NCBI RefSeq assembly: GCF_015595035.1
Contig: NZ_JADNRN010000002.1
Span: 262,647 to 326,646, forward strand
From: Glaciecola sp. MH2013
GTDB taxonomy: Bacteria; Pseudomonadota; Gammaproteobacteria; Enterobacterales; Alteromonadaceae
Length of the DNA: 64,000 nucleotides
Reading direction: 5' to 3'
The notes under the pieces were generated by a model. The model worked only from the letters and a program-made list of their open reading frames with translations. It did no database searches and was not told the DNA's origin. Position 1 is the stretch's first letter. The number at the start of each line of letters is the position of its first letter. Both the position numbers and the translations under genes were made by a program. Positions 15,374 through 40,445 of the stretch are shown piece after piece.

Positions 15374-16276
15374 TTACCTATTTATATCGGCAAGTTTGTC
15401 GACGAGAAAATCAATAAAAACCCGAACTTTGGGTGTAATCACATTTGATTTAGGGTAAACTAACCAAACAGCAGCATTGTCTTCAACAAAATAATCTGGT
15501 AGCACTCGCGCTAAGGTTCCCTCAGCAATTTCAGTATTTACATTCCATAGGGAACTCATACAAATGCCGACACCAGCCAATGCAGCTCTGCGAATGGTTG
15601 CTCCGTCGTCACATACAATACTATGCTTTGCCTTATTTGGAGGGAAGGTACAATCTCGCTGCGCAGTTTTGCACTTTAATTTTCGAGGTTTTGAATTAAT
15701 AAACAATATCAGCTGATGATTATCCAAGTCTTCGGGTGTCAATATTGAAGAGTGTTTGCTTAAATAGTCAGGAGATGCGCATAGAATTCGAGTATCTTGA
15801 AATAATCGCCGCCCTATTAGGCTGCTGTCTTCAACCGCAGAGTTTCTTAACGCTAGATCAAACCCGCCGTCGATTAGATTCACCTGTGTATCAGATAACT
15901 TTAATTCCAAATTGACATCAGGATACATATCTAAAAATTCGGGCAATATAGGTGCTATGTAGCGCTCAGCAAAGGTGCTAGAGGCTGCAAATCTTAATGT
16001 TCCACTTACTTTGGGATTTCTTCGCCCCAGAGCCGCCAATGAAGCTTCTTCTTGCGCAATCATTTCTTGCGCAAACGGCAAGAACTCTGCCCCCTCAATT
16101 GACAAGGTTACCTTGCGAGTTGAGCGGTGGAATAAGTCTGCCCCCAATTCGAGTTCCAATTTGGCTAAGCGAGCACTTGCAACTGCGGGGCTGAAACCTA
16201 GACGGCTTCCTGCCGCGCCAATGTTCAATAGTTCTGCGGCCAATACAAAAAGTTTAATACTTTTAGTATCCATCAA
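15374..16276 (-). CDS. LysR-family transcriptional regulator
   Basis: N-terminal HTH (MDTKSIKLFVLAAELLNIGAAGSRLGFSPAVASARLAKLE) plus LysR substrate-binding domain; divergent from kefG. Confidence 0.85.
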   Translation of the reverse strand: MMDTKSIKLFVLAAELLNIGAAGSRLGFSPAVASARLAKLELELGADLFHRSTRKVTLSIEGAEFLPFAQEMIAQEEASLAALGRRNPKVSGTLRFAASSTFAERYIAPILPEFLDMYPDVNLELKLSDTQVNLIDGGFDLALRNSAVEDSSLIGRRLFQDTRILCASPDYLSKHSSILTPEDLDNHQLILFINSKPRKLKCKTAQRDCTFPPNKAKHSIVCDDGATIRRAALAGVGICMSSLWNVNTEIAEGTLARVLPDYFVEDNAAVWLVYPKSNVITPKVRVFIDFLVDKLADINR

Positions 16277-16375
16277 TTATCTCTTAAAACTAAATACTGA
16301 TTATAAATATACCTCATTTATATAATTTATCAAAAATATTATGGTGAGGTATCAATATTTTATCGAGCCCATTAA

Positions 16376-16984
16376 ATGAAAAAAGTCTTAATTAATTTTG
16401 CACACCCAGTTAAATCACGTTCCAAGATCAATAAGGCACTATGTGATGCTGTTAAAGGCATAGAGGGAGTAACATTAAACGATCTGTATGCTAACTATCC
16501 CGACTTTATGATTGATACAGAACGAGAGCAACGCCTGTGTGAAGAGCACGACATTATCATTTTTCAGCATCCGCTTTATTGGTATTCCACGCCAGCAATA
16601 GTCAAAGAATGGTTTGACTTGGTATTAGAGCACGGTTGGGCATATGGCTCTATGGGAAAAGCACTTCACGGTAAATTATTTTTCCAATGCATATCAACCG
16701 GTGCAGATTCCTCATCGTATCAGCCAGCAGGTTATAACGAATATACCCTCAAACAGCTTCTTGCTCCTGTAAAAGCGACAGCCAAACTATGTGGCCTAGT
16801 TTGGCTTCCTCCTTTCGCTATCACAGGGGTACACCAAGGTCTTTCAGCTGACAAAATAGAAAACCATGTTAACAGATACAAACATACCATTATTACTCTG
16901 CGAGACTCCTTAGTCGATGTACATGAGCTCTCTCAACAAGATGAACTTAATGTTCTTCCAACTAAAAAAGAAGGAGCAAAATAA
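16376..16984 (+). CDS. kefG: glutathione-regulated K+-efflux ancillary protein, NAD(P)H quinone oxidoreductase-like (KefG/KefF)
   Basis: Flavodoxin-like fold; adjacent and co-directional with kefC (2-nt gap). Confidence 0.8.
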
Positions 16985-16985
16985 A

Positions 16986-18836
16986 ATGGAATCTTTTTTA
17001 CTGCAATTCTTCATTTTTCTCGCGGCAGCAGCGGTTTCGGTTCCTATTGCGAAAAAGCTAGGTTTGGGCTCAGTGCTTGGATATTTGGTTGCTGGTATTG
17101 TGATTGGCCCATTTGGAGGTTCACTAATTCATGATGTGGAAGATATAATGCATTTTACTGAATTTGGTGTCGTAATGATGTTGTTTTTAGTTGGCTTAGA
17201 ATTAAAACCATCGTTGTTATGGAAGCTAAAGACTCCTATTTTAGGTATTGGAGGCTCTCAAGTACTGCTAACTAGCGTATTTATCACCTTAGTCAGTATT
17301 ATATTTTTGCCGTGGCAACAGGCTATAGCCGTTGGTTTGATTTTGTCGCTATCATCAACCGCAATCGTCTTACAGACACTCCAAGAAAAAGGCAAAATGA
17401 AAACAGAGGCTGGCCAGTCAGTTTTTGCGGTCCTTCTCTTTCAAGATCTAGCTGTAATTCCGATGTTAGCAATTATTCCTTTGCTTGCGACTTTATCAAT
17501 TGCCGCAAGCGGTCAGCACGACTCCGTTTTATTTGATATCAGCCATTTACCCGCTTACTTGCAATTTGTTGTCACTATCGGCGCGATAGCAGCTGTGCTT
17601 TTGTTAGGAAAATTTGCTTCTCAACCGGTGTTTCGAATAATTGCAAGAACGGGTGTTAGAGAAGTGTTTGTTGCAGCCGCTTTGTCGCTTGTCATTGGCA
17701 CTTCATTATTAATGATGATGGTTGGATTATCCCCTGCTTTGGGTGCTTTTCTTGCAGGTGTCGTGCTGGCTGATAGCGAGTTTAGACATGAGCTTGAAAG
17801 TGATATTGAGCCTTTTAAAGGCCTTTTACTTGGAATTTTCTTCATTTCGATTGGTGCAAGTTTAAACTTTACACTTATCGGCGATAACATGGCCTTAGTT
17901 CTTGGCTTGGCAGCTGGGTTAATAGCAATTAAGTGGGTCATTTTAATAGCAATTAGCTTTGTTTTTCGTATCGGTAAAAAAGATCGAGGTTTGTTTGCAA
18001 TTGCTTTGGCTCAGGGGGGAGAGTTCGCATTCGTGCTGTTCCAAGTAACGAAGAGTTCGGGGGTACTGCCCGTATCAGTTATTGAGCCTCTGATATCTGC
18101 GGTTGCTATCTCGATGTTTATGGCGCCAGTCATGTTTGTCGTTCATGAAAAACTAAGTAAGAAGAATGTTGAGATAAACCATGATAGTAAAGATGATGAG
18201 ATTTCAAATCATGAACACAGAGTCATTTTAGCTGGTTTCGGCCGTTTAGGTACTGATATTGGGCGTTTTCTGCTGTCAGCAGGTATCAAACCGGTCATTC
18301 TGGATCATGACTCATACAATGTAGAAGTACTTCGAAAATTAGGTTTCGAAGTGTACTACGGAGACGCAACAAGGCTTGATTTGTTAGCAGCTGCTGGTGC
18401 GTCACAAGCTGATATGTTAATTGTGAGTTTTGCAGATACGGATGCTACCAAAAAATTGGTAGAGCTTGCCAACAAACACTACCCGCACTTGGAAATAGTG
18501 GTAAGTGCAAGGGACAGAGAAGCCACCTTTGAATTGATGGATCTTGGCGTTAGTAATATCTACAAAGAAACATTTGGTAGCGCTATTGCAATGGGCCAAA
18601 CAGTAATGACTAACCTAGGAGTTGATCCATATGAGGTGCATCGACTGAAGCATATTTTTAGTAAAAAAGAAGCACAAATGCTACCCGAGTTACATCAAGA
18701 ACGAGCGCAAGAAGAGAAATATGTTTCGGCTTACAAAAGGCATCACGAAGAGTTAGAAATTTTGATGAACGAAAAAAACAATAAAAATCTAATTGAACTA
18801 GATAAAGCTTGGACAGCAAAAAATCCGGAGCAATAG
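16986..18836 (+). CDS. kefC: glutathione-regulated potassium-efflux system protein KefC/KefB (CPA2 plus RCK/KTN)
   Basis: ATG at 16986 ([44 protein letters not shown]); C-terminal Rossmann KTN domain (ILAGFGRLG). Confidence 0.9.
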
Positions 18837-18847
18837 CAAAACAAGTC

Positions 18848-18875
18848 CGCAGAGAGCCGCCCTTGGCTCTCTGCG
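18848..18875 (+). terminator. putative terminator hairpin after kefC
   Basis: CGCAGAGAGCC-GCCCTT-GGCTCTCTGCG, an 11-bp stem; weak U tract. Confidence 0.4.
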
Positions 18876-19157
18876 CCTGCAATTCTGTCTCACATATACA
18901 CTACAGCTAGCTATCAACTTTTCAATAAATAGACTGAGCATTACGGTTTGTAAGACGATCATTTAGTTTCTTTCATAAATCCGATCACAAAATAGCAATA
19001 TGAGATAGGTTCAAACACCTTAGACATTATATAAAAAAACTAAATACTAATTATTCAAACTGCTTATTTATAAAAAATTTCATAAGTATTATTGTTTATG
19101 CATTCCAACGAGTGCAGCGATAGTGTACTTCGATATGAGTTTTTGAAAGAGGCATGT

Positions 19158-19937
19158 ATGAACCTAATTGCATCAGTAAATTATCACGTTAATAAAAACC
19201 AAATTCAGTCTTTTCAGTTCGATGTAGATGGTATTCAGGGCAAGCTTATTTCGCCAGAACTACAAGAAACTCAAGTGCAAGTACGAGATATTAGAAACAC
19301 TAAAGCTGAGTTCTCTATTGATGTAGACGGACTCGTATTTTTGAATGCCAAATCAGAAGTAAACGACTTCAACAAACCAGGTTGGAAGAAAACTTATGAT
19401 AGCGAAATAAGTCAGCTACTAGAGAAAAGCATCGGCGCACAAGACGTGCTTGTATTTGACCATACTGTAAGAATTGATGACTCAGAAGCGATTCGCAAGC
19501 CCGCTAGAAATGTGCACAACGATTATAGTGAAAAAGCTGCTTATGAACGTTTGAGTGATTTGGTCGGAGCGCATCAGGCTTTGAAATATAAAGATGGAGA
19601 ATTTGCTTTCGTCAACATTTGGCGTCCTATCGAAGAAACCATAAAAACCTCCCCACTTGGTTTTATAAAACCCTCCAGCGTTAATATAAATGATTGGGTG
19701 GATATCGAGCTAATCTATCCCGACCGAAAAGGGCAAATTTTAGGCCTCGTCAACAATCCGAAACACGAGTGGTTTTATTTATCAGACATGACTCCTGAAG
19801 AAGTCATTGTTTTTAATATATTTAACAGCAAAGGCAAGCCTCACCTCGCTCACAGCGCACTTGATGTAGTTGGTCAATCAAAGGCTAGTGCGCCAAGGAA
19901 AAGCATAGAAACAAGAACCCTAGTGCGCTATGCCTAG
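19158..19937 (+). CDS. hypothetical protein, possibly CmcJ/NvfI (AsaB-like) hydroxylase family
   Basis: Start chosen at ATG 19158 behind SD AGAGG. Motifs FDHTVRIDD...HNDYSE...FVNIWRPIE loosely resemble that family as recalled; unverified. Confidence 0.45.
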   Translation: MNLIASVNYHVNKNQIQSFQFDVDGIQGKLISPELQETQVQVRDIRNTKAEFSIDVDGLVFLNAKSEVNDFNKPGWKKTYDSEISQLLEKSIGAQDVLVFDHTVRIDDSEAIRKPARNVHNDYSEKAAYERLSDLVGAHQALKYKDGEFAFVNIWRPIEETIKTSPLGFIKPSSVNINDWVDIELIYPDRKGQILGLVNNPKHEWFYLSDMTPEEVIVFNIFNSKGKPHLAHSALDVVGQSKASAPRKSIETRTLVRYA

Positions 19938-19978
19938 CATCGATCAAGCATCACAAGATATTACTAAAAAAGGAAATA

Positions 19979-20827
19979 ATGATGAAATATGAAAACTTCT
20001 GTACCTTCACCACAAAGCAAGCTTCTGGGATATTGACTGTTACCTTCGACTTTGGCGAAACCAATGTTCAAGGGCAAGAAATGCTTGCTGATTTAAACAG
20101 TTTGGCAATGCGTCTTGAAAGGGATCGTGACACAAAAGTAGTGGTGTTCCAATCTGCCAATCCTGAAATATGGGTTTGTCACTATGATACTGAGCTATTG
20201 AAAGATATGTCTACAGAAGCCGTTTCGCGAGACGAAGCAACGTTGTTAGATTTACAGTCTGTTTGTGAACGTTTGAGCAAAGTTCCTCAAGCGACTATCG
20301 CTAAATTAGAAGGTTTTGCACGCGGTGGTGGTCATGAATTAGCCCTAGCGTTGGACATGCGTTTTGCTGCCAGAGGTAAATACAAGTTGATGCAAATGGA
20401 AGTTGCAATGGGCATTCTTCCTTGTGGTGGAGGGGCTTCTAGAATGGCTCGTCAAACGGGCCTTGGTAAAGCACTTGAAATAATCCTAAGTGCACGCGAT
20501 TTTGATGCTGATGAAGCAGAGAAATTCGGCACAATCAACAAAGCATTAGCACCAGACGAAATTGGTAAATATGTTGATAACCTCGCAAACAGAATTGCTA
20601 AATGGCCTGCCGAATCGATTAATGCTTGCAAGCAAATGGTTTATGAATCAATTGATAAACCAATAGGTGAAGCGTTAAAAGCCGAAGCTTATTGGCTTTA
20701 CCAAGCAACAAGCAAAACGCCAGCCGTAAAGCGCTTTGCAATCGCCGACGAGCAACGCCTCGAGCACGATATGGAAACGCAGCGCAACTGGAATGACGTT
20801 GTTATTAACGTTCAAGACATAAATTAA
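19979..20827 (+). CDS. enoyl-CoA hydratase/isomerase (crotonase) family protein
   Basis: LEGFARGGGHELALALDMRFAA oxyanion-hole region. Confidence 0.8.
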   Translation: MMKYENFCTFTTKQASGILTVTFDFGETNVQGQEMLADLNSLAMRLERDRDTKVVVFQSANPEIWVCHYDTELLKDMSTEAVSRDEATLLDLQSVCERLSKVPQATIAKLEGFARGGGHELALALDMRFAARGKYKLMQMEVAMGILPCGGGASRMARQTGLGKALEIILSARDFDADEAEKFGTINKALAPDEIGKYVDNLANRIAKWPAESINACKQMVYESIDKPIGEALKAEAYWLYQATSKTPAVKRFAIADEQRLEHDMETQRNWNDVVINVQDIN

Positions 20828-20841
20828 GTAAGGATGTTGTC

Positions 20842-21753
20842 ATGACAGTAAATTATCTGAAACAAGCACAAGAACTTGCGCTACCGTCACGAGAAGAGAT
20901 GCTGCTGCGTTCGTCATCAGTTGAACAGTTTTGGTCAAGTAATAGTAAATTGTTGGAGTTAGCTTGGGCAGAGTGGGACGAGCAACAAAGCATGGATTTA
21001 GTCGCTTTAGGTAACGAACTGCTAGACGAGCGTTTGATGGTTGCAGTGCAGAATGCTTGGAGAAATCCTAATACAGAACAGAGAGTTAGAGCTTTATGGG
21101 AAGAGGTTACTCCAAATGTATATACATGCCAGTTTTTTAACCCTGAAAAGCTAACATTATTACGTAATTTTTTGGAGAGTGCTTGGGATGCAAAGATACC
21201 AATGCGCCCTCCCTATGGAATTGTGTTGAATAGAGGGGGCGCTATGCTTGACCCTAGATCCTCGGGTTACCTTGCCGCTCCCTCTTTTCAGACATTCTAT
21301 AGAACATTAATAGACTTATACATGAGACCTATTGCCAGAATGTTGTTCCCCGAAATTATGGGCTATGACTCGCAAAGCTTTGGCTTTTCAATTAAGTACC
21401 AGCCTACCACTGATACATCGATTAGGCCTCATACTGATGCGTCGTCGGTGACTTTAAACATTAACCTGAATTTACCTGATGAAAGTTTCACAGGGTCATC
21501 AGTGGACTTTTTTGATACTAGTACAAAAGAGACAAAGTCACTTATGTTTGCTCCAGGCAGCGCAATGATACATCGTGGTTCAGTACCTCATACAGCGTTG
21601 CCAATTACCAGTGGTGAGCGCACAAACTTTGTGCTTTGGCTATTTGGTGAGCGAGGCAGTGTAGCAAGGGGTTTGAAATCTGATGCAAGGGTTGATGCTT
21701 CGGCACGCTGGATACTGGAAAGGCCAAAGCAAGATAACTTTGCACCATTCTAA
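20842..21753 (+). CDS. putative 2OG-Fe(II) oxygenase-superfamily protein
   Basis: H-x-D ...H arrangement (IRPHTDAS ... MIHRGSVPHTALPITSGERTNFVLW). Confidence 0.5.
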   Translation: MTVNYLKQAQELALPSREEMLLRSSSVEQFWSSNSKLLELAWAEWDEQQSMDLVALGNELLDERLMVAVQNAWRNPNTEQRVRALWEEVTPNVYTCQFFNPEKLTLLRNFLESAWDAKIPMRPPYGIVLNRGGAMLDPRSSGYLAAPSFQTFYRTLIDLYMRPIARMLFPEIMGYDSQSFGFSIKYQPTTDTSIRPHTDASSVTLNINLNLPDESFTGSSVDFFDTSTKETKSLMFAPGSAMIHRGSVPHTALPITSGERTNFVLWLFGERGSVARGLKSDARVDASARWILERPKQDNFAPF

Positions 21754-21787
21754 TTAACGTACAAACAACGAGATAAGGAAAATTGAA

Positions 21788-22030
21788 ATGTTAGGTGAAA
21801 ATCATTCATTAATTAACGAGTTTCCATCACTTTCTACCAAAATAGAAGCGTTAAACAAAAGTGATGAATTATTCAAAGCTAAAGCGGCTCAATATGATGC
21901 ATTAGATGCAGAGATCCGTAGTTTAGAGTTACAAAACTCACCAGCCGATGACGCTACTATGCATGAACTTAAGCAGCAACGAGCCAAACTCAAGGACGAT
22001 TTATATCAATGCTTGCTAAGGGTTGACTAG
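21788..22030 (+). CDS. DUF465 (YdcH-like) family protein
   Basis: 80-aa helical protein with the YdcH-like pattern ...ELFKAKAAQYDALDAEIRSLE...LKQQRAKLKDDLYQCL. Confidence 0.7.
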   Translation: MLGENHSLINEFPSLSTKIEALNKSDELFKAKAAQYDALDAEIRSLELQNSPADDATMHELKQQRAKLKDDLYQCLLRVD

Positions 22031-22068
22031 TAAGTAATGTTGCGCCGAAAAATACTAGGAGAAAAACG

Positions 22069-23484
22069 ATGAGCATTGTTCAAACTCAAGTGCTAGTTTT
22101 AGGTTCTGGGCCCGGTGGATATTCTGCCGCATTTAGAGCTGCAGATTTAGGATTAGAAGTTTTGTTGGTTGAAAAGTATCAAGACCTTGGTGGTGTTTGT
22201 TTGAATGTTGGTTGTATTCCTTCTAAAGCATTATTGCACACCGCTAAACTCATTGATGATGCAGGGAAATCGAGTGAGCATGGCTTAACATTTGCAAAAC
22301 CGGAAATTGACCTTACCAAGATAAATACCTGGAAACAGTCCGTCGTATCCAAGTTGACTAGCGGTGTAGCAGGGATGGCAAAAGGCAGAAAAGTCGAAGT
22401 CATCAACGGCGATGGGCAATTTGTATCGCCAACTTCATTGAAAGTGAGCAATGATGATAGTGTCACGCTTATCAATTTCGAATATGCCATTATTGCTGCA
22501 GGGTCATCGGTAGTCGAATTGCCATTCATGCCTTATGAAGATAACAGAGTCATGAATTCGACATCTGCATTGGAGTTAAATGATATTCCAGAAAGCTTGC
22601 TTGTACTTGGTGGTGGAATAATAGGCTTGGAAATGGCCACTGTATATAGTTCTCTTGGGTCGGAGGTGACCGTTGTTGAATTTGCCGATCAGTTAATACC
22701 GGCCGCTGACGCCGATTTGGTGACGATTTACAGCAAATACAATAGGCAAAAGTTTAAGCTGATGTTGTCTACCAAAGTAACTGGCGTTACGAGTAAAAAA
22801 AGTGGTTTAGAAGTTGTCTTTGAAGGAATGAGCGCGCCAACAAAGCCAATTACCTATAACAAAATATTAGTTGCAGTCGGTCGGAAGCCAAATGGTGCGT
22901 TGTTAAACGCAGAATCGGCAGGCTTTAAAGTTGATGACAAAGGCTTTATTGAAGTTGACCACCAAATGCGTACAAACCTTGAACATATTTTTGCCGTCGG
23001 TGATATTGTCGGCCAGCCTATGTTAGCGCATAAATCGGTCCATCAGGGGCATGTTGCTGCAGAAGTAATTGCGGGCAAAAATCACACATTCGATCCACGT
23101 TGTATCCCATCTGTTGCTTATACCGACCCTGAACTTGCCTGGGTTGGCGTGACTGAAAAGGAAGCCAAAGCGTCTGATATAAATTATCAAGTTGCTAACT
23201 TCCCTTGGATAGCTTCGGGTCGTGCTATCGCCTCAAGCAGGTCTGAGGGAAAAACTAAATTAATCACCGACAGCACAACTGGGCGGGTAATTGGCGGCGG
23301 CATTGTCGGACTAAACGCTGGTGAGTTATTGGGAGAAATATCTCTTGCTATAGAAATGGGCGCGACTGCAGAAGACATTGCCCTAACTATACATGCGCAC
23401 CCAACCCTGAATGAATCAGTGGGCATGAGTGCAGAGATTATAGAGGGTACGATCACTGACTTACCTCCTCAAATGAACCGTTAA
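22069..23484 (+). CDS. lpdA: dihydrolipoyl dehydrogenase (E3); stand-alone, no E1/E2 genes adjacent
   Basis: 471 aa; FAD site GSGPGGYSAA; redox-active GGVCLNVGCIPSKALL; NAD site and C-terminal dimerisation His. Confidence 0.9.
   Translation: MSIVQTQVLVLGSGPGGYSAAFRAADLGLEVLLVEKYQDLGGVCLNVGCIPSKALLHTAKLIDDAGKSSEHGLTFAKPEIDLTKINTWKQSVVSKLTSGVAGMAKGRKVEVINGDGQFVSPTSLKVSNDDSVTLINFEYAIIAAGSSVVELPFMPYEDNRVMNSTSALELNDIPESLLVLGGGIIGLEMATVYSSLGSEVTVVEFADQLIPAADADLVTIYSKYNRQKFKLMLSTKVTGVTSKKSGLEVVFEGMSAPTKPITYNKILVAVGRKPNGALLNAESAGFKVDDKGFIEVDHQMRTNLEHIFAVGDIVGQPMLAHKSVHQGHVAAEVIAGKNHTFDPRCIPSVAYTDPELAWVGVTEKEAKASDINYQVANFPWIASGRAIASSRSEGKTKLITDSTTGRVIGGGIVGLNAGELLGEISLAIEMGATAEDIALTIHAHPTLNESVGMSAEIIEGTITDLPPQMNR
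23425..23484 (+). repeat. copy 1 of a 60-bp imperfect direct repeat (native lpdA 3' end)
   Basis: ATGAGTGCAGAGATTATAGAGGGTACGATCACTGACTTACCTCCTCAAATGAACCGTTAA, about 52/60 identical to 24420-24479. Confidence 0.8.
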
Positions 23485-23518
23485 ACTTATTGAATTAAAT
23501 TTGAAAAAGGAACCTACT

Positions 23519-24331
23519 ATGAGGAATTTAGTTTATACGTACACTTTGATCACGATATTATTCTCAGCCTCGACCTTGGCGGATAACAAAACGGTAAAAG
23601 TCATTGAGTCGAATGAAGTAGAGTGGGGTCACTTAAATCCGCTAAGAGGAGAGTTAAGTCCCGGCGCCGCAAACCTGTGGGGAAATAGAGCTGAGGATTC
23701 TGCAACAGGAATGCTAGTTCGGTTCAATAATGGGTTTCAATCTCCTCCTCACATTCACAATATTTCATACCGCGGCATTGTGATTGAAGGTCAATTGCAT
23801 AACGATGATCCAAAAGCTGAAAAAATGTGGTTGCCCACAGGGTCTTTTTGGACGCAGCCTGCGGGGCAAAACCATATTACAGCGGCAAATAGTGAGACTA
23901 ACCTGATCTACCTAGAAATTGACTCTGGTCCTTATTTAGTTAAGCCATCAAGCGAGAAATTTGATAACGGGGAACATCCCATAAACCTCCACATTGACAA
24001 TCTCGTTTGGATGGAACACAAACAATTAGGTTTCATTGATGCTGAAGGTGTAAGGACTGCTTTTGTTTGGGGGGAACCTTCTAAATTGTCTGGATCAATG
24101 CTCAAAATTCCTAGCGGCTTTAAAGGAGCTATAAAAACAGAAGCAAGCGAATTTAGATCAGTGATTATTACTGGAGTAGTCAATTACAGCGACGGCGAGC
24201 AAAACAAAACGACACTAAATGCAGGTAGCTATATCGAGTCTTCTGGACTAAACACTCACGTTATCGAAAATAAAAGTAATAAAGAAGCTATTATCTATTT
24301 ACGAACTGACGGCCCCTATCGAGTATATTAG
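23519..24331 (+). CDS. secreted hypothetical protein (possibly cupin-like beta-sandwich)
   Basis: ATG 23519 behind SD AAGGA; signal peptide MRNLVYTYTLITILFSASTLA; bracketed by the lpdA-tail repeat. Confidence 0.6.
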   Translation: MRNLVYTYTLITILFSASTLADNKTVKVIESNEVEWGHLNPLRGELSPGAANLWGNRAEDSATGMLVRFNNGFQSPPHIHNISYRGIVIEGQLHNDDPKAEKMWLPTGSFWTQPAGQNHITAANSETNLIYLEIDSGPYLVKPSSEKFDNGEHPINLHIDNLVWMEHKQLGFIDAEGVRTAFVWGEPSKLSGSMLKIPSGFKGAIKTEASEFRSVIITGVVNYSDGEQNKTTLNAGSYIESSGLNTHVIENKSNKEAIIYLRTDGPYRVY

Positions 24332-24419
24332 CTGGAAGTAACTTCCCGTCCCAATGTATATAAAAACTAAAGCTAACTTTGGCACTAACCGTAAGTTAAA
24401 AGATAATCATTGAGCGGAA

Positions 24420-24479
24420 ATGAGTGCAGAGATGATAGAGGGCACAATCATTGATTTACCTCCTCAAATGAAACAGTAA
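24420..24479 (+). repeat. copy 2 of the lpdA 3'-end repeat (degenerate orphan tail, MSAEMIEGTIIDLPPQMKQ*)
   Basis: ATGAGTGCAGAGATGATAGAGGGCACAATCATTGATTTACCTCCTCAAATGAAACAGTAA; reading frame and stop preserved. Confidence 0.8.
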
Positions 24480-24598
24480 GCTCAAGCTCTATTATCAAAT
24501 AAATCTAAAAAGTAATTCAATTATTTGGTTGGTTATCAAACGTAAAGATAAGAGATAACATACATCCAATCAAAAAAGCAGGTTTACGGGAGCATTTC

Positions 24599-25585
24599 AT
24601 GAAAGCGATGATAGTAAAGAATTTTGGCTCAGCAGATGTATTTGAAGTTGCTGAGCTTGCAAAGCCGAGCGTTAAAGAAGGCCATATATTGGTCAAAATT
24701 ATGGCCTCTAGTGTAAACACCGTCGATACAATGATTCGGCAAATGGGCCCTGACTTACCTCTTTCGCCAGCAGCACCTGCAATTTTGGGAATGGATTTCG
24801 CTGGTATCGTTGAAGAAGTCGGTGACAATGTTGATGTATTCCAAGTTGGTGACGAAGTCTATGGTTGTGCTGGAGGTTTAACTGATTTGCCCGGTACACT
24901 AGCGGAGTATATTGTTGCTGATGCAAATCTAGTTGCAAAGAAGCCTAAGAATTTGACCATGAGAGCAAGCGCTGCATTACCATTAGTGGCGATCACTGCT
25001 TATGAAGGTCTCAAAAGAGCTGCGGTTAGCAAAGGTCAGAAAGTACTTGTGCATGGCGGTTCTGGAGGTGTTGGGCACATTGCTGTGCAGTTGGCAAAGC
25101 ATTTTGGTGCGGATGTTTATTCAACCGGGGGAGGTGAAAAACAACTTTCGCTTATTGAAAAACTGGGCGCAACTCCTATCAATTATGTTAATGAATCAGT
25201 CGCGGATTATGTCACTAAATACACCAATAATATTGGCTTTGATGTCGTTTTTGATTCAGTAGGCGGTCAAAATATGTTGAATTCATTTGATGCTGCAAAA
25301 TTAAATGGTCAAGTGGCTTCAACGGTATCCCTCGTAGAAATTGATTTGTCTACAGCGCACTTTAAAGGTTTGTCTTTACATGTTGTCTTTATGCTTATTC
25401 CAATGCTTCACAATGTAAATCGGGAGATTCATGGAGCAATTCTAGAAGAAATTGCGAAGATAGTTGAAGCGGGTGAACTTATGCCAGTACTAGATGAAAG
25501 CGATTTTACACTTGAAGACGTGGCTAAGGCACATCAAAGACTAGAGAGTGGAAAAGCTATGGGTAAAGTGGTTATTAGTCATTAG
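24599..25585 (+). CDS. zinc-type alcohol dehydrogenase/quinone oxidoreductase (MDR superfamily)
   Basis: 328 aa; GroES-like N-terminal domain; Rossmann VLVHGGSGGVGHIAVQLAK. Confidence 0.85.
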   Translation: MKAMIVKNFGSADVFEVAELAKPSVKEGHILVKIMASSVNTVDTMIRQMGPDLPLSPAAPAILGMDFAGIVEEVGDNVDVFQVGDEVYGCAGGLTDLPGTLAEYIVADANLVAKKPKNLTMRASAALPLVAITAYEGLKRAAVSKGQKVLVHGGSGGVGHIAVQLAKHFGADVYSTGGGEKQLSLIEKLGATPINYVNESVADYVTKYTNNIGFDVVFDSVGGQNMLNSFDAAKLNGQVASTVSLVEIDLSTAHFKGLSLHVVFMLIPMLHNVNREIHGAILEEIAKIVEAGELMPVLDESDFTLEDVAKAHQRLESGKAMGKVVISH

Positions 25586-25622
25586 TATTCTATTTGAAAA
25601 CATCAACACCGAAGGACAACAC

Positions 25623-26438
25623 ATGAAAACGATCTTAATTACGGGCGCAACAGATGGAATCGGATTTGAAACCGCCAAGCTATTTGCTGCCCATGATCAT
25701 CAGTTGATATTGCATGGTCGTAGCCAAGAGAAGATGAACGCAACGCTACAAAAAATACATAATGCATTCCCAGATGTAAAAATTGAGGGCGTTTTGGCTG
25801 ATTTGTCTAAGTTTGGTGATGTTGCTTCATTGCTAAACATCGTTAATGCAAAATACAGTAGCATTGACGTAATTGTTAATAATGCTGGGGTTTTGAAGTT
25901 ACCGAACCCAATTACTGAGAATGGCTTAGATGCCCGTTTTGTTGTCAACACGATAGCGCCAATTATTATTACAAGAGGCTTGTTACCGATTTTGTCAGAA
26001 CAAGGCCGAATTGTTAACTTATCCTCTGCGGCACAATCACCTGTGCAAAATGATGCAATTACTGGAAAGCTACCACTGGGCGACGATATGCAAGCTTACG
26101 CACAGAGCAAACTAGCATTGACGATGTGGGTTAGAGCTACAACAAACGCTTTCGGTTCATCACAGGTGAATGTAGCCGTGAACCCAGGTTCATTGTTGGC
26201 TTCTAAAATGGTCAAAGAAGGTTTTGGCGTTGCTGGCAATGATCTGAGTATTGGCGCACAAGTGCTATTTGATGCTGCACTATCGAATAAATTTAGAGAT
26301 GCCTCAGGAAAGTACTTTGACAATGACATTGGAGCTTTTTCAGAACCTCATCCGTTTGCATTAATACAAAGGAACTGTGATGAACTAATGGTTGCCATAG
26401 AGAAGGTTATAAACGAATATTTCACAACTCCTGCTTAA
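25623..26438 (+). CDS. short-chain dehydrogenase/reductase (SDR)
   Basis: ATG 25623 behind SD AAGGA; TGATDGIGFETAK cofactor motif; catalytic YAQSK. Confidence 0.85.
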   Translation: MKTILITGATDGIGFETAKLFAAHDHQLILHGRSQEKMNATLQKIHNAFPDVKIEGVLADLSKFGDVASLLNIVNAKYSSIDVIVNNAGVLKLPNPITENGLDARFVVNTIAPIIITRGLLPILSEQGRIVNLSSAAQSPVQNDAITGKLPLGDDMQAYAQSKLALTMWVRATTNAFGSSQVNVAVNPGSLLASKMVKEGFGVAGNDLSIGAQVLFDAALSNKFRDASGKYFDNDIGAFSEPHPFALIQRNCDELMVAIEKVINEYFTTPA

Positions 26439-26887
26439 AACAAATTGTGAAACAATGATACAAATTCGATAATGAGAAATGCAATAGTTTCGAGTCAATT
26501 GTTTATATAATTCGAACCAAGAATAAGGACACTGTTCGAGGCTATTGCAATCACAAAAGAGTAATCGAGTTCTTATTTATCTGTGATTAATAAATATGAT
26601 TTGAATCGCAAGGCAATTATACAGAATGTGTTACAGGCTCCATTAGTTCTAATTTATGAAACTAACACCATACTTCTTTTAACACTACTCAAATAACTAG
26701 TAAACCATATCGTTCTACTCATTTTTTTGTTAGTAAAGAGTGTATGCTAGAATTTTTGCAATTACTTTATTGTTACAAATCTAAGTTTTACACCAACTTT
26801 ATTGTCACTTCCCAAAGCGTAAAGCTATGCGCCCATGATGGTCGTGGCGACTCAGTTGTCGCTGAAAACTAACAAATGAGCTGAAAA

Positions 26888-29122: not shown

Positions 29123-30154
29123 CTATAAGTTAACTTTCCACAGCATATCGTTAACTTGGGTAATTTCTATATTACAGCCCAATATTTGCTTAATAACGGC
29201 AATATTCGTTGTTGTGTGTAAGCTTGGTTTTGTTGTTGTAAAACTGCCGCTCCCAGCGATAGCAATTAAGATAAGCAACTGGTCGGCGAGATACTCTTCT
29301 ACGGCGGCTTTGGCATGTATGAACTTATTTACTCGTCCCACAGCACGTTTGGCAACTTTCTCTGATGATAAGCCATGCTCGCCAACAACCTCAAATATAC
29401 TACGATGAGTTTGGCTTTGAATGCTAAGCTGGAAGCTGTTACCAGGGCCAGGAGAATCTATCTGGTGAACTTGATTTAAGGCGTTCTGCCAACCAAGAAG
29501 CTTCTGAGCCGTGGCAATTTCTCTTTGGCCTATGCTGACTGGCAATAAACTCACCAAGGCATCAAGAGAACAGTTGTCTATATCGTTAGCGAAGTCGCCA
29601 CCCGAATCACTTAAGAAAAAAGGCTTGAGTGTTACAGATGGCTTCACATTAAGTTGCCATTTACCGCCGCCAGCAGGATAGAATCCCAGTTTTGAAGTAC
29701 TGACGCGACAATTTACCCCCATACCTTTTATTAAGGGCAAATATGATTGCTCGAAAAAGCTTAATGAAGGAGACATACCATTGTGTGTGCCGCCCTCAAA
29801 TACGACTGTTGAACTTTCTTTTGCCAAGGATAACACTGGTAAAATGGTCTGGCAGACCAATGTGGTACTTCCGGCGCTGCCAATAGCAAATCGATAATTC
29901 CCTGGTTTAACAGTGCGTGGTGAGAACCGAATTCGAGTAGCTCCCAGTTCCACACCTTCTGTTATAGCATCAGAAACCTCTTGTGCTGCCAAAACAGAAG
30001 TAAGGTGCTGACGTAATAGTCCAGGCTTTTTCCGACCAGCACGAATATTTACTAATTCAATATTCTGCTGGGTAAACATCGATAAAGTCAGGGCTGTTCT
30101 TAGCACCTGACCACCACCTTCTCCTTGAGCACCATCAATTATCATATAGTCCAT
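29123..30154 (-). CDS. rtcA: RNA 3'-terminal phosphate cyclase
   Basis: MDYMIIDGAQGEGGGQVLRTALTLSMFTQQNIELVNIRAGRKKPGLLRQHLTSV matches the RtcA N-terminus; 343 aa. Confidence 0.9.
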   Translation of the reverse strand: MDYMIIDGAQGEGGGQVLRTALTLSMFTQQNIELVNIRAGRKKPGLLRQHLTSVLAAQEVSDAITEGVELGATRIRFSPRTVKPGNYRFAIGSAGSTTLVCQTILPVLSLAKESSTVVFEGGTHNGMSPSLSFFEQSYLPLIKGMGVNCRVSTSKLGFYPAGGGKWQLNVKPSVTLKPFFLSDSGGDFANDIDNCSLDALVSLLPVSIGQREIATAQKLLGWQNALNQVHQIDSPGPGNSFQLSIQSQTHRSIFEVVGEHGLSSEKVAKRAVGRVNKFIHAKAAVEEYLADQLLILIAIAGSGSFTTTKPSLHTTTNIAVIKQILGCNIEITQVNDMLWKVNL

Positions 30155-30172
30155 TTTAACTCCTTATAACTA

Positions 30173-31396
30173 TTAACCTTTTACACAAACAATTTGCTTC
30201 AAGGTATAAACGACTTCAACAAGATCCTTCTGTGCTTCCATAACCTTTTCGATGTCTTTGTATGCGTGTGGTATCTCGTCTATGACTGATTCGTCCTTCC
30301 TACATTCAACACCTTCGGTCGCAGCAATTTGATCTTTCACATTGTAAATCTTCTTGGCTTTAGTTCTCGACATCACACGACCAGCACCGTGGCTGCAGCT
30401 ATTAAAGCTTTCTGGATTTCCCAAGCCTCTTACGATGAAAGAGCGAGCGCCCATACTTCCTGGAATGATCCCCATTTCGCCTTTTTCAGCCCTTACAGCC
30501 CCTTTTCTGGTAACGTAGCATTCTTTGCCAAAGTGACGTTCGCGCGAAATATAATTATGGTGACAATTTACAGCAAGCTCAGCAGTCGAAAATGGCACTG
30601 GCAACTGTTTTCGTAACGCAGCTATTGCATTGAACATCATAACTTCACGATTTTTCGCTGCGAAGTCTTGAGCCCACTCTACGGCTTCAACATAGTCGTT
30701 GAAATAGTCGCTTCCCTCCTCAAGGTAAGCCAAGTCCATATCCGGCAGGTTTATTTGATGGCGCTGCATTTCTTTCTTCGCTAATTCAATAAAATAGCTA
30801 CCAATGCGGTTTCCAACACCGCGACTACCTGAGTGAAGCATTATCCACACAGCATCATTTTCATCTAAACAAAGCTCCAAAAAGTGATTCCCTGTTCCCA
30901 TCGTGCCAAGGTGTTTAACGTTGTTACTTTTCTCGATCGCCGGGTGCTTGGCGCAGATCCGTTCAAAGCGAGCTTGCAACTTCAACCACTCTCCGGCAAC
31001 AAGGTCTGGAATGTTATGCCAAGCACCTCTATCTGCTCGCCCTCGACCACTTGTTCTACCATGGGGAACGGCTGCCTCAAAAGCGTGCCTAATTGCAGAT
31101 AAGTTATCAGGCAACTGGCTAGCCTTTAGGGTTGTTTTAGTTGCTACCATGCCGCAACCAATATCAACACCAACAGCAGCTGGTATAACAGCATCAACAG
31201 ATGGAATAACACTCCCAATCGTTGCGCCCTTGCCTAGATGTACGTCTGGCATCACTGCAATGTGCGAATGTACCAGTGGCATTGATGCTATATTTTTTAA
31301 TTGCTGCTGAGCTTTTTCTTCAAAAGGGACTCCCTTAGTCCACGCTTTGATTGGTGCGCTTCCTTCATTCTCTATCACGTTGTAGTTCTTACACAT
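30173..31396 (-). CDS. rtcB: RNA-splicing ligase RtcB
   Basis: 407 aa; ...KAWTKGVPFEE...HIAVMPDVHLGKGATIGSVIPS...GTMGTGNHF...HSGSRGVG...HGAGR metal- and GMP-binding motifs. Confidence 0.95.
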   Translation of the reverse strand: MCKNYNVIENEGSAPIKAWTKGVPFEEKAQQQLKNIASMPLVHSHIAVMPDVHLGKGATIGSVIPSVDAVIPAAVGVDIGCGMVATKTTLKASQLPDNLSAIRHAFEAAVPHGRTSGRGRADRGAWHNIPDLVAGEWLKLQARFERICAKHPAIEKSNNVKHLGTMGTGNHFLELCLDENDAVWIMLHSGSRGVGNRIGSYFIELAKKEMQRHQINLPDMDLAYLEEGSDYFNDYVEAVEWAQDFAAKNREVMMFNAIAALRKQLPVPFSTAELAVNCHHNYISRERHFGKECYVTRKGAVRAEKGEMGIIPGSMGARSFIVRGLGNPESFNSCSHGAGRVMSRTKAKKIYNVKDQIAATEGVECRKDESVIDEIPHAYKDIEKVMEAQKDLVEVVYTLKQIVCVKG

Positions 31397-31423
31397 TATA
31401 ATTTCCTTAAATATTCTTTTTTA

Positions 31424-32578
31424 TCAAGCTATGTTGACGGTGCCATTCATTAGGCCTTCCAAGCCACCGTAAACAGTCAAGCTATCAATTCTTTCAGCCA
31501 CCTTTTCAAGGGCTTCGAGCTCCTTTAGCCGCATCAATGTTGGGTTGTTTTCCATGACTTTTGCGGTGTTATGCAAGCTTCTTGTTGCAGAGGTTTCTTC
31601 ACGTCTTTTTATTACGTTTGCCTCTGCCGCTTTTTGCGCTTCGACTACCTGATTCAATATTGCTTTCATCTCACCGGGCAAGATGATGTCTTTCACTCCA
31701 ACACTTACAAGTGATACACCAACATCTGCTAGCCGCTCGAATGCCAGTTCTTTAACTGTCTCATTCACGTACAATTTATCTAACAAAATATCATCCAAAG
31801 ACTTAGTGCCGACGGCTTCCCTCAATGCTAACTGCAGTGCCTTATAAATAAAGTCATCTACTTTATCGACACTACGTGCTGCTAACTCGGCATCATCTAC
31901 TTTGATACTTGCGCTTAAATTAATTCGCAAACTCACTCTGTCTTTGCTCAAAATTTCTTGCCCAGAAATCTCAAGCAATTGAGTTCTACAATCAAAAGAC
32001 TTCAATTCAATGTCGTGATTAAACTGCCAAAACCCATGTTGACCAGGAGATAGCTTTCGCAGCAATTGACCATTTACATAAAGTAAGCCGATATGATTTT
32101 TGTCTACATTCAAATCAGCAATTGGTTTAACTGCTACGGTGCGCTCGCTTCTAATGAGACGTGACGCTGCATTGGCACCAGCTCTGTTGACTAGAAAAAG
32201 CGTTTTATCATCAACATCGATACTTTCATCAATAGAAATTTTTTCTACCCTTATATCGCCAGCATCTTTCCAAAGATATAGATGCTCACTTGGCGCCACG
32301 ATACCTCTGAGTAAATCGTCAACGTAAAGCAAACCCACTTCTGTACTTTTTAGCTTCCAATGAGATATATGCTCTGCGAATACTGTTTGATTACGATATA
32401 AGCGTTCAGCGTTTTTTTCGGAAAAGAACAGGGTATTGATGTCAAAATAGATAAACTCAAATTCATTCTTGATGTCCCAGATTCTGTGTCTTCCTGGTTT
32501 TATTACGCTGTTAAACTGTTGATTTTTGTATGCCAAAACTCTTTGGTTTTCTGCTACTACTAGTGTTTTTATGAACAT
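31424..32578 (-). CDS. cytoplasmic SPFH/band-7 (slipin-like) domain protein, first gene of the rtc operon
   Basis: C-terminal half has the SPFH core and coiled coil (...GVKDIILPGEMKAILNQVVEAQKAAEANVIKRREETSATRSL...). N-terminal roughly 200 aa holds an internal duplication (VGLLYVDDLLRGIVAPSEHLYLWKD / IGLLYVNGQLLRKLSPGQHGFWQFN) and no TM helix. 27 nt upstream of rtcB on the same strand. Confidence 0.7.
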   Translation of the reverse strand: MFIKTLVVAENQRVLAYKNQQFNSVIKPGRHRIWDIKNEFEFIYFDINTLFFSEKNAERLYRNQTVFAEHISHWKLKSTEVGLLYVDDLLRGIVAPSEHLYLWKDAGDIRVEKISIDESIDVDDKTLFLVNRAGANAASRLIRSERTVAVKPIADLNVDKNHIGLLYVNGQLLRKLSPGQHGFWQFNHDIELKSFDCRTQLLEISGQEILSKDRVSLRINLSASIKVDDAELAARSVDKVDDFIYKALQLALREAVGTKSLDDILLDKLYVNETVKELAFERLADVGVSLVSVGVKDIILPGEMKAILNQVVEAQKAAEANVIKRREETSATRSLHNTAKVMENNPTLMRLKELEALEKVAERIDSLTVYGGLEGLMNGTVNIA

Positions 32579-32759
32579 TAAAAAATTCCTTATTTAGTCC
32601 TCTTTGAAGAGGGGGTTAGTAAGTGTTAAGTACTTGTTCGATAAGGGCCTGAAACATAACAACCACGGGGAGCGTCCTGCTTGCCATAGCGCATTTGTTC
32701 TTGGCGTTTACCCAACATTGGTAATCACAACTTACTAACGCTTAGTTACTTATCATTGT

Positions 32760-32831
32760 ATAAAGGATGGGAATTGAACCCATAACCCTCGAATTAAAAA
32801 TTCGATGCTCTACCAATTGAGCTACCTGTAT
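32760..32831 (-). ncRNA. tRNA-like element A (72 nt; Lys-UUU-like anticodon loop; AU-rich acceptor stem; no CCA)
   Basis: Minus-strand read ATACAGG-TA-GCTC-AATTGGTA-GAGC-A-TCGAA-TTTTTAA-TTCGA-GGGTT-ATGGG-TTCAATT-CCCAT-CCTTTAT gives a full cloverleaf with G18G19 and a TTCRANY T-loop; one acceptor mismatch; A1:U72. Confidence 0.75.
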
Positions 32832-32898
32832 TTAAGGAAGGATTCGAACCTTCGCCAATAGCCCTATGCTATTGCTCTATCCTCTGAGCTACTTAAAT
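32830..32898 (-). ncRNA. tRNA-like element B (69 nt; non-canonical anticodon loop CATAGGG with A33; 3-nt variable loop)
   Basis: ATTTAAG-TA-GCTC-AGAGGATA-GAGC-AATAG-CATAGGG-CTATT-GGC-GAAGG-TTCGAAT-CCTTC-CTTAAAT; perfect 7-bp AT-rich acceptor; overlaps element A by 2 nt. Confidence 0.7.
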
Positions 32899-32901
32899 GT
32901 T

Positions 32902-32970
32902 TATTAAGATGGGACTCGAACCCATGACCTTCGAAAAAATTCGATGCTCTTCCTCCTGAGCTACTTAATA
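32902..32970 (-). ncRNA. tRNA-like element C (69 nt; anticodon arm collapsed to TCGAA-TTTT-TTCGA, 4-nt loop)
   Basis: TATTAAG-TA-GCTC-AGGAGGAA-GAGC-A-TCGAATTTTTTCGA-AGGTC-ATGGG-TTCGAGT-CCCAT-CTTAATA; same T-stem as element A; cannot decode. Confidence 0.7.
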
Positions 32971-33211: not shown

Positions 33212-34825
33212 ATGGATAGTGTTGTGAAAGATGTAGTTGTTGTTAGTTTGATTGGCACACAATTAGATTATGTAGGTAAGAGAGTTGACCGATGGGCCAA
33301 GTGGCGACCTAACGTCAGCCTCTGCAGCCAAGATGATTTGGTGATAAATCAGCTTCACCTTTTGCATGATAACCATAGTAATCGTCTCGCTAACGATGTC
33401 ACCGTCGACATTGAATCAGTCTCTCCAGAAACCGAAGTTAGTCTGCATAGTGTTAATTTTCAGAATCCATGGGATTTTGAAGAAGTTTACGCGAAACTGT
33501 TTGATTGGTGCCTTCAGCAAGATTTTGATACCGACAAAAATGACTATTTATTCCATATAACAACAGGGACACATGTTGTTCAGATATGCAGTTATTTACT
33601 TACCGAAAGTCGCCACTTCCCAGGTCGTCTCATTCAGACATCACCTGATCATAACAATAAGAACAAATCGATTGGTCGGATACAAATTATCGATTTAGAT
33701 CTATCTAGGTATGATCAACTCGCGACGAGATTTGATGTTGAACACCAAGAAGGTAAAGAGTTCTTAAAAGGGGGCATTGAAACCAAAAATAAAGATTTTA
33801 ATAATCTCATTGGGCAAATTGAGAAAGTGGCGATTCGCTCAAAAGATCCGATGTTACTCACCGGACCTACAGGTGCAGGAAAGAGTCAGTTAGCTACGCG
33901 AATATTTCAGCTAAAAAAGAAACGTTCAATGCTGAAAGGCACGCTAGTGTCGGTGAACTGCGCGACCTTGAAGGGTGAAAATGCTATGGCCGCATTGTTT
34001 GGCCACACAAAGGGCGCTTTTACTGGCGCTTTAAAAGCGAGGGATGGGTTTTTACTTACTGCGAATGAGGGGGTTCTTTTTCTAGATGAAATAGGTGAGC
34101 TTGGTTTGGAAGAGCAAGCCATGCTGTTACATGCGATTGAAAACAAGAGCTTTCATCCTGTTGGAAGTGATGCAGTAGTTAACAGTGGTTTTCAACTCAT
34201 TGCAGGCACGAATAAAAATCTGAAGGAGGAAATTAAAAAAGGTGCTTTTCGAGAAGATTTGCTTGCGAGAATAAACCTTTGGACATACGAACTACCAGCT
34301 CTTAAAGATAGGAAGGAAGACATTCCTGCAAATGTTGATTATGAGATTGAGTTGTATTCCCAAAAGTCGGGGCATCGAGTGCAGTTCAATAAGGAAGCTA
34401 AAAGTCGTTTTATTGGCTTTGCAGTATCTAATAAAGCCACATGGTCTGGAAACTTCAGAGATTTAAGCTCGGCAATAACACGGCTTTGCACCTTGGCAGA
34501 TTCATCAAGAATTACTATTGCAGATGTTGAAGACGAGATTGAGAAATTAACGCGCGCTTGGAGTTCATCGGGTGAACAAACTCACACTGATATTTTAAAT
34601 AGCTATTTATCAACAGAGCAGATTCAGCAACTTGATAAGTTTGATGCACAACAACTGAGTTATGTTTTGGCGGTTTGCCAGCGACACACTAGCATGGCAT
34701 CTGCCGGCAGAGAGTTGTTTGATGTTAGCCGAACATTTAAATCTCAACCGAATGATTCAAGTCGTTTACAAAAGTATTTGAATAAATTTGGTTTAAAGTG
34801 GAGAGATATCCGAAGTATCGATTGA
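33212..34825 (+). CDS. rtcR: sigma-54-dependent transcriptional activator RtcR (CARF, AAA+, HTH)
   Basis: 537 aa. N-terminal CARF-like VVVSLIGTQLDYVGKRVDRWAKWRPNVSLC; Walker A GPTGAGKSQLA; GAFTGA sigma-54 contact motif; near-colinear with E. coli RtcR as recalled. Confidence 0.9.
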   Translation: MDSVVKDVVVVSLIGTQLDYVGKRVDRWAKWRPNVSLCSQDDLVINQLHLLHDNHSNRLANDVTVDIESVSPETEVSLHSVNFQNPWDFEEVYAKLFDWCLQQDFDTDKNDYLFHITTGTHVVQICSYLLTESRHFPGRLIQTSPDHNNKNKSIGRIQIIDLDLSRYDQLATRFDVEHQEGKEFLKGGIETKNKDFNNLIGQIEKVAIRSKDPMLLTGPTGAGKSQLATRIFQLKKKRSMLKGTLVSVNCATLKGENAMAALFGHTKGAFTGALKARDGFLLTANEGVLFLDEIGELGLEEQAMLLHAIENKSFHPVGSDAVVNSGFQLIAGTNKNLKEEIKKGAFREDLLARINLWTYELPALKDRKEDIPANVDYEIELYSQKSGHRVQFNKEAKSRFIGFAVSNKATWSGNFRDLSSAITRLCTLADSSRITIADVEDEIEKLTRAWSSSGEQTHTDILNSYLSTEQIQQLDKFDAQQLSYVLAVCQRHTSMASAGRELFDVSRTFKSQPNDSSRLQKYLNKFGLKWRDIRSID

Positions 34826-39634: not shown

Positions 39635-40188
39635 AAGGCTCTGAGAGCGGAAAAAGAGTCCAATGCACCAGCAAGTACTTGTTGATAGTGCTCTTCTGTG
39701 GCGCACAGGGAATGAATATAGTTAATTGTGGTGCGGAAGCTATCTATTTTTTGGTGGCCATAGCAATCGTAAAAACGAGTAGCCTTTTGTAATCCGAGTG
39801 TTTTTTTAACTTTTTTACCGATAATCATACCACCAAGAGAAGAGCCCTCAGCGACGTACAGCACTCCTAGGGAAAAGTGTCTAGATGCCGTCTTCTTAGC
39901 GAGTGCTAATTTTGGCAGTGTTGTTCCGCCTAATTCCTGTAAATCTGCCTCCAGCAATCCAGTTTTTACTTTTATTAACGGTAAAGACGAGTGATTGAAA
40001 TATTCGTGTAAATGCGTGGACTCCGCGGCGGCAAACCATTTATGCATAATTTGCATAACCGCTATATAGCTTTCAATAGTTAACGTTGTTTCCATCAAAC
40101 TTCTTAACAAAGGACTGCTATCCAATGCTGTGTGGGCAGAGTGCGTATCTGTTTTTAGCCTTTGATGTGTTGTATTAAAATAATTCAA
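39592..40188 (-). CDS. bphO: heme oxygenase (biliverdin-producing, BphO/HemO-like)
   Basis: 198 aa; N-terminal LKTDTHSAHTALD fits the heme-oxygenase proximal-His helix; heads the phytochrome operon. Confidence 0.65.
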   Translation of the reverse strand: MNYFNTTHQRLKTDTHSAHTALDSSPLLRSLMETTLTIESYIAVMQIMHKWFAAAESTHLHEYFNHSSLPLIKVKTGLLEADLQELGGTTLPKLALAKKTASRHFSLGVLYVAEGSSLGGMIIGKKVKKTLGLQKATRFYDCYGHQKIDSFRTTINYIHSLCATEEHYQQVLAGALDSFSALRALCNKKVVTQEELVS

Positions 40189-40382: not shown

Positions 40383-40445
40383 AAAAGGACAAAATACATG
40401 GAGCAAGATTGGCACTTGAACGTGATGTGTAAAGAAATCATCGGC
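40383..40445 (+). pseudogene. decayed partial paralog of the downstream DUF1399 gene
   Basis: AAAAGGACAAAATACATGGA is 20/20 identical to the RBS and start of the 41205 gene. The next GCAAGATTGGCACTTGAACGTGA and TGTGATGTGTAAAGAAATCATCGGC match 41392-41432 and 41447-41470 at about 83%, with the intervening segments deleted. Confidence 0.55.

Follow-up and report, generated by a model that had tools for sequence, protein, structure and literature searches.

The 64,000-nucleotide stretch of Glaciecola sp. MH2013 analyzed here (contig NZ_JADNRN010000002.1, positions 262,647 to 326,646 of the forward strand; hereafter, the window) contains a dihydrolipoyl dehydrogenase gene, lpdA, the end of which occurs twice, once on either side of a gene of the family DUF4437. 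All features of this locus lie on the + strand, and coordinates are those of the window. The lpdA gene (22069-23484, 471 amino acids) is an intact orphan: its product is 100% identical to the Glaciecola sp. MH2013 protein P0001, scores 491.6 bits against the TIGR01350 equivalog model (cut-off, 408.8), aligns over residues 4-467 with Escherichia coli LpdA (4JDR), and carries the redox-active CxxxxC (as CLNVGC) and the C-terminal HxxxxE dyad (within HAHPTLNE). The first copy of the repeat, R1 (23425-23489), consists of the last 19 codons and the stop of this working gene plus 5 nt. It is followed by ~930 bp of DNA (23490-24419) that hold the DUF4437 (double cupin) gene (23519-24331, 270 amino acids), and then by the second copy, R2 (24420-24484), a relic lpdA tail with a 19-codon open frame. 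Beyond R2 lie a spacer (24485-24598), a zinc-ADH-family quinone-oxidoreductase-like gene (24599-25585; PF08240, PF00107, and PF13602), and an SDR oxidoreductase gene (25620-26438; PF00106), the start of which is uncertain because its open reading frame (ORF) opens at 25548.

An earlier note, made from the letters alone, had described the repeat as the last 60 nt of lpdA (23425-23484) recurring at 24420-24479 with 52/60 identity and with frame and stop kept, and translation and self-BLAST reproduced this description exactly. The two cores encode MSAEIIEGTITDLPPQMNR and MSAEMIEGTIIDLPPQMKQ, respectively, each followed by the stop codon, and they share an identical 17-nt block, TTACCTCCTCAAATGAA. 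When lpdA was compared with the whole window by BLASTN, the R1/R2 pair was the only repeat of its kind (E = 7.7e-15), all other matches having E values of at least 0.08, and a repeat search returned the same pair as a 78-nt direct repeat of 81% identity (23410-23487 and 24405-24482), the strongest local direct repeat in the 64 kb. The open frame of R2 has an in-frame stop two codons upstream of its ATG, and a weak −35/−10 match (24468-24495) spans the old stop codon. No second 3′-end duplication of this type was found elsewhere in the window or around the DUF4437 genes of other genomes. The repeats flank exactly one gene, as the earlier note had it, and the signal peptide that it assigned to the product is likely by eye.

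The origin of the two copies becomes clear from the corresponding locus of the nearest sampled relative, L081, a metagenome contig whose lpdA product (P0002) is 93% identical in amino acid sequence to that of strain MH2013. In L081, lpdA is directly followed by the quinone-oxidoreductase gene, with no DUF4437 gene, and the gene order is that of the window (LysR, flavodoxin-like, KefB-like, YDMC, enoyl-CoA hydratase, 2OG oxygenase, DUF465, lpdA, zinc-ADH, and SDR). Two BLASTN blocks relate the loci, namely, window 15375-23489 to L081 308-8421 (91.2% identical) and window 24420-26552 to L081 8357-10488 (85% identical). Because both blocks overlap on L081 8357-8421, R1 and R2 derive from one single-copy segment of 65 nt; measured on this empty-site ortholog, the duplicated unit is thus 65 nt long (23425-23489 and 24420-24484), and the left block of native homology ends with R1. 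Furthermore, 119 nt separate the lpdA stop from the next start codon in L081, exactly as many as separate the R2 stop from the oxidoreductase start in the window (24480-24598), and therefore R2 is the lpdA tail in its ancestral position. The spacer itself is 112/120 identical to that of L081, and the native oxidoreductase encoded behind it is 91% identical in amino acids to its L081 ortholog. In total, the window has 995 bases more than L081, made up of ~930 bp of new DNA and a second 65-nt copy of the target; the flanks are colinear over window 15375-26552, and taking out the insert together with one repeat restores the spacing.

A more distant ortholog locus, L082, agrees with L081 in lacking the DUF4437 gene after lpdA. 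Each of these loci has a single lpdA, and neither a local repeat nor a second lpd copy was found in either of them. The ECH-2OG oxygenase-DUF465-lpdA context is conserved in both, as is the position of the native SDR gene. Since both relatives lack the insert, window DNA 23490-24419 is a lineage-specific addition.

The insert consists of 29 nt before the gene, the DUF4437 gene itself, and an 88-nt tail (24332-24419). The encoded protein matches PF14499 over its full length (E = 2.3e-81; 273.1 bits against a cut-off of 24; profile positions 2-249 of 250), and its N-terminus, MRNLVYTYTLITILFSASTLA/DNK, resembles a Sec signal peptide by eye and is probably one. A ribosome-binding region, AAAGGAA (23506-23512), precedes the gene, with no obvious promoter. 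A distance of 34 nt separates the gene from lpdA; both belong to a closely spaced series of genes on the same strand, and between the two, no terminator-like site was found. The tail contains a promoter-like site (TTGGCA-17-GATAAT, 24379-24407), such matches being near chance level here; it shows no notable fold (z = −0.28) and resembles nothing in lpdA, the window, or the fetched loci to a significant degree. At the left junction, a TTA-rich overlap (23482-23489) is common to native and donor-type sequence, and at the right junction, 9 of 14 positions match in register just left of R2 (24406-24419).

Regarding the source of this DNA, the nearest DUF4437 protein is that of Pseudoalteromonas sp. 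MMG013 (locus L083), at 74% identity, and the other homologs listed, from Vibrio, Paraglaciecola, Alteromonas, Shewanella, and others, reach ~57-64%. At the DNA level, window 23489-24330 is 76.7% identical to L083 4971-5812, with the similar stretch opening precisely at the R1 junction, 30 nt ahead of the ATG, and closing with the stop codon. Thus, flanks that are 85-91% identical to L081 enclose a gene whose nearest homolog is 74% identical in amino acids and stands in a different gene context. In composition and codon usage, the insert is indistinguishable from the host and the neighboring genes, and these measures are uninformative on the donor; because the base composition is that of the host, it is the phylogenetic distribution only that marks the insert as foreign. 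Compared with its nearest homolog, the gene has a nonsynonymous divergence (dN) of 0.15 and a synonymous divergence (dS) of 1.15, which indicates that it is under purifying selection relative to that homolog. No papers on DUF4437 turned up in a literature search, and by sequence, the protein matches no solved structure.

In four other genomes (L083, L085, L086, and L106), DUF4437 homologs were never found behind an lpd gene, and no repeats bracket them. Therefore, the lpdA tail did not travel with the gene, and there is no sign of a recurrent mobility mechanism. What the DUF4437 genes of these four loci do adjoin are LysR-controlled zinc-ADH, SDR, ABM, or LLM oxidoreductases, and in Catenovulum, the ADH encoded immediately before a DUF4437 gene shares 73% identity with the oxidoreductase of the window. 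The insertion would accordingly have re-created a recurrent DUF4437/zinc-ADH/SDR trio. Loci with DUF4437 beside LysR-regulated oxidoreductases are thus seen in Pseudoalteromonas, Glaciecola, and Catenovulum (L083 3416-5813, window 23519-26438, and L106 1973-4729).

These comparisons establish that an insertion took place, with its polarity, its extent, its 65-bp duplication, and the foreign affinity of the gene that it carries. As to the history as a whole, we consider it very probable that lpdA received ~930 bp of foreign DNA at its end, with duplication of a 65-bp target, after strain MH2013 had split from its nearest sampled relative. The first of two alternatives in the earlier note, in which the gene inserted beside the end of lpdA and the tail was duplicated, is borne out by the empty site in L081, the one 65-nt source segment, and the 119-nt spacing. 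In this course of events, a piece of ~930 bp with one promoter-less DUF4437 gene and its own ribosome-binding region would have entered at the very end of lpdA, duplicating the last 60 nt of lpdA and 5 nt beyond them. The upstream copy, R1, would then complete lpdA and keep the conserved C-terminus, while the downstream copy, R2, would be left as a noncoding relic in front of the old spacer. The same-strand oxidoreductase cluster would supply transcription to the promoter-less newcomer.

The joining itself could have taken one of two routes: (i) a single illegitimate event at patchy microhomologies that duplicated the target, either by staggered breaks ~65 nt apart with fill-in or by template switching during replication, in which synthesis moved off the chromosome just behind the lpdA stop, continued along the foreign piece, and returned to a point 65 nt upstream, or (ii) a Campbell-type single crossover of a circular intermediate that carried a short copy of the lpdA end. 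The second route would need a chimeric circle with an lpdA tail beside DUF4437, and a segment of 65 nt is close to the shortest that RecA-dependent recombination can use. For this route there is experimental precedent: when a plasmid sharing part of lacZ integrated in E. coli after conjugation, duplications of 109-950 bp of the homologous segment were present in most integrants (PMC3240628). Such Campbell-type integration resembles the present case in that foreign DNA is flanked by a direct duplication and the gene end is present twice; it differs in that the duplication here measures only 65 nt and no plasmid backbone remains. Homology-facilitated illegitimate recombination, in turn, shares with this locus ~1 kb of foreign DNA without mobility genes and patchy microhomology at both junctions. 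However, it generally gives deletions, with junction microhomologies of 3-10 bp, and usually deletes recipient DNA of similar size (PMC3240628), whereas here a 65-bp duplication is seen and no homologous anchor of the donor is evident. Because deletions are the general product, the first route would be an atypical outcome.

Selection probably acted as a filter on the outcome, since an insertion that removed the last 19 residues would inactivate LpdA. In an alignment with E. coli LpdA (4JDR), the duplicated codons fall on the conserved ...AAEVFEGSITDLP, and according to the citation of Benen et al. (1992) in PMC4293902, Azotobacter vinelandii E3 is inactivated by deletion of its C-terminal 14 residues. 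Given the conserved tail and the loss of activity upon truncation, an insertion at this position would be tolerated only with the tail restored.

The divergence of the two copies is compatible with this history. Over the 60-nt core, either copy matches L081 at 55/60 positions, and R1 matches R2 at 52/60; each of the eight positions that distinguish R1 from R2 has, in L081, the base of one of the two copies. The private changes, at repeat positions 24, 27, 54, and 57 in R1 and 15, 32, 36, and 56 in R2, are interleaved and therefore fit independent divergence from one ancestor rather than a single crossover between a native copy and a diverged foreign one. Those of R1 comprise three synonymous changes and one K-to-N replacement, and those of R2 comprise one synonymous and three nonsynonymous changes, a pattern that would fit selection on R1 and drift of R2. 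The dS of lpdA between the window and L081 is 0.24 (upstream genes, 0.12-0.44); set against this value, the 8/60 differences between the copies would fit an insertion somewhat younger than the split of MH2013 and L081, with wide uncertainty.

Downstream of the insertion, dS against L081 is higher, with 0.55 for the oxidoreductase and 0.72 for the SDR gene. Two patches of low identity (24870-25020, 75%, and 25770-25920, 70%) stand out from surroundings of ~90%, and together with the raised dS, they may reflect mosaic recombination in this downstream region. Import of the right flank was considered and rejected, as there is no divergence step at the junction and the first 300 nt rightward are 92-93% identical to L081.

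Several points weigh against the favored history: (i) a target duplication of 65 bp is far longer than those made by transposases, and the route of joining is one that we infer; (ii) R1 and R2 differ from each other slightly more (8/60) than either does from L081 (5/60), and these numbers are thereby compatible with an insertion that predates the split and was then precisely lost from the L081 lineage; (iii) the contrast between synonymous and nonsynonymous changes (3:1 in R1 and 1:3 in R2) is statistically nonsignificant; and (iv) the empty site is represented by one close (L081) and one distant (L082) relative, and no second genome with a filled site was found. Because the relatives are so few, the age and the original extent of the duplication depend on 60-65 nt.

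Among the other explanations, one that we regard as very unlikely is that the locus is the relic of a larger site-specific element whose integrase targets the 3′ end of lpdA and whose attP carried a replacement tail, so that R1 and R2 would be attL and attR and a later deletion would have spared DUF4437 only. Many genomic islands sit in this manner in tRNA and protein genes, restoring the 3′ end of the gene. The architecture here fits, with the gene end restored on one side and the displaced old end on the other, as in islands and prophages located in gene 3′ ends; moreover, the identical 17-nt block could be a crossover core, and an attP arm in decay could account for the patchy similarity left of R2. 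However, Pfam scans of all window ORFs of at least 150 amino acids and of the 80-amino-acid DUF465 ORF revealed no integrase, recombinase, transposase, phage, or integron domains, and the new DNA amounts to a single 0.9-kb gene with 29 nt before and 88 nt after it, the gene's own upstream sequence abutting R1. Nor did an attP-like counterpart emerge from the viral, phage, and plasmid collections, limited as these are. A scan of viral contigs with the 17-nt block gave 16 matches that all end at 17-21 nt, as expected by chance; a metagenome scan with the invariant repeat core gave three matches of 20-24 nt with no lpd or DUF4437 homology, again at chance level; and BLAST searches with the insert plus R2 found no match among phages and one among plasmids, which is simply another, unrelated DUF4437 locus on a Catenovulum replicon (L106). 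Finally, because R1 and R2 are equally close to the native sequence (55/60 each), neither copy looks element-borne.

Other mobile elements were considered and rejected. A transposon or insertion sequence (IS) would likewise leave a direct target duplication on both sides of the inserted DNA, but such duplications are typically 2-14 bp and accompany a transposase and terminal inverted repeats, whereas the duplication here is 65 bp, and the locus has neither of these features. A single inverted repeat flanks the insert (23484-23502 and 24508-24526, 79%), and its right arm lies in native intergenic DNA that is also found in L081. By inspection, the tail lacks the RYYYAAC/GTTRRRY cores of an integron attC site, in line with the fold score given above, and the window has no intI among its ORFs of at least 150 amino acids; a dif-like site in the tail was likewise ruled out by inspection and folding.

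Very unlikely, in our view, is an insertion older than the split from the L081 lineage, which would have lost the insert by recombination between R1 and R2 and so restored a perfect empty site. Direct repeats of 65 nt can mediate such a precise deletion, and over the 60 nt in question, R1 and R2 diverge by 13%, no less than the window does from L081 (8%). On the other hand, L081 is not a simple R1/R2 chimera, as at least five switches across the eight informative sites would be needed; the outgroup L082 also lacks the gene; and two events are required instead of one.

The second alternative in the earlier note was that a further lpd copy had been deleted, i.e., that lpdA-DUF4437-lpdA′ once existed, perhaps through a large duplication, and a deletion left only the last 60-65 nt of lpdA′. 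The preserved frame and stop of R2 would suit this scenario, as would the sharp start of R2, which looks like a deletion endpoint. Yet R2 shows only four substitutions and no indel over its 60 nt, so that preservation of the frame is to be expected even in the absence of selection. In addition, local gapped alignment of the 88 nt left of R2 with lpdA was no better than that of shuffled sequences, tblastn found no lpd fragment in the window besides the 19-codon piece, and in L081 and L082 alike, lpdA occurs once and without a repeat. To arrive at a state that one event accounts for, this scenario would need two or more additional ones, namely, duplication of 1.4 kb around an insertion and a subsequent deletion. 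With no lpdA-like sequence left of R2 and no second lpd in either relative, this alternative has no support and is very unlikely. Equally improbable is the notion that the repeats are the ends of an integrase-less single-gene cassette mobilized in trans with a replacement lpdA tail, or the product of an unrecognized mechanism that makes target duplications of ~65 bp. A lesser variant of this notion, likewise improbable, is that R2 is kept as part of the oxidoreductase promoter, given the match at 24468-24495, or as a gene for a 19-residue peptide.

The orphan state of lpdA, which the earlier note had already pointed out, holds up, as Pfam scans of the ORFs of at least 150 amino acids revealed no E1 or E2 gene in the 64-kb window and the same context is conserved in L081 and L082. 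The same note had tied this state to a duplicated accessory lpd history, but orphan status bears no relation to the repeat. In the protein collection, the close orthologs of this LpdA are confined to P0002 (93%, on a JGI metagenome contig) and P0003 (75%, from a Glaciecola metagenome-assembled genome), beyond which identity drops to the 66-70% of canonical Alteromonadales LpdA, roughly equidistant. Among the matches listed in a scan of genome contigs with LpdA, only distant lpd genes appeared (identity of at most 63%), and no close relative. Judged from these identities, the gene would fit a diverged accessory paralog.

Several further features of the window deserve a brief record. Between rtcR (33212-34825) and an SPFH/Band7-rtcB-rtcA operon, the leader of the rtc operon (32758-32970, − strand) contains three abutting tRNA-like units, which ARAGORN reads as Lys-UUU, a 71-nt "Leu-UAG" that shares 4 nt with the first unit, and a third unit whose anticodon loop is aberrant; Rfam lends support to the first and the third as tRNAs but not to the second. 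A second RtcB paralog followed by an overlapping RF-1-domain protein forms a PrfH-like pair (46964-48735, + strand), separate from the rtcR-controlled rtcBA operon at 29123-32578. A bacteriophytochrome (PAS-GAF-PHY-HWE kinase-receiver), a hybrid histidine kinase, and a heme oxygenase are clustered at 34849-40188 (− strand) as a light-sensing module of this marine heterotroph. In addition, two other direct repeats were seen. One is AT-rich and 70 nt long (16276-16345 and 19026-19095, 73% identical), with one copy in a divergent LysR/flavodoxin-like promoter region and the other upstream of the YDMC-family gene, and could be a shared operator or promoter of the same regulon. The other is 39 nt long (40407-40445 and 41433-41471, 82% identical, 1026 nt apart) and lies near an ORF without a Pfam match (41184-42014).

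Overall, the insertion behind lpdA is an event of a known kind, an ordinary footprint of horizontal gene acquisition that is expected from known recombination routes, and it leaves current understanding unchanged. It is notable mainly for its clarity and for the long 65-bp duplication: an empty site, readable junctions, and an intact target gene make it an unusually clean natural case of a promoter-less gene joining an operon without mobile-element machinery. For the uncharacterized family DUF4437, a member of which is here fixed directly upstream of a zinc-ADH/SDR pair, the association offers a functional lead of the guilt-by-association type.

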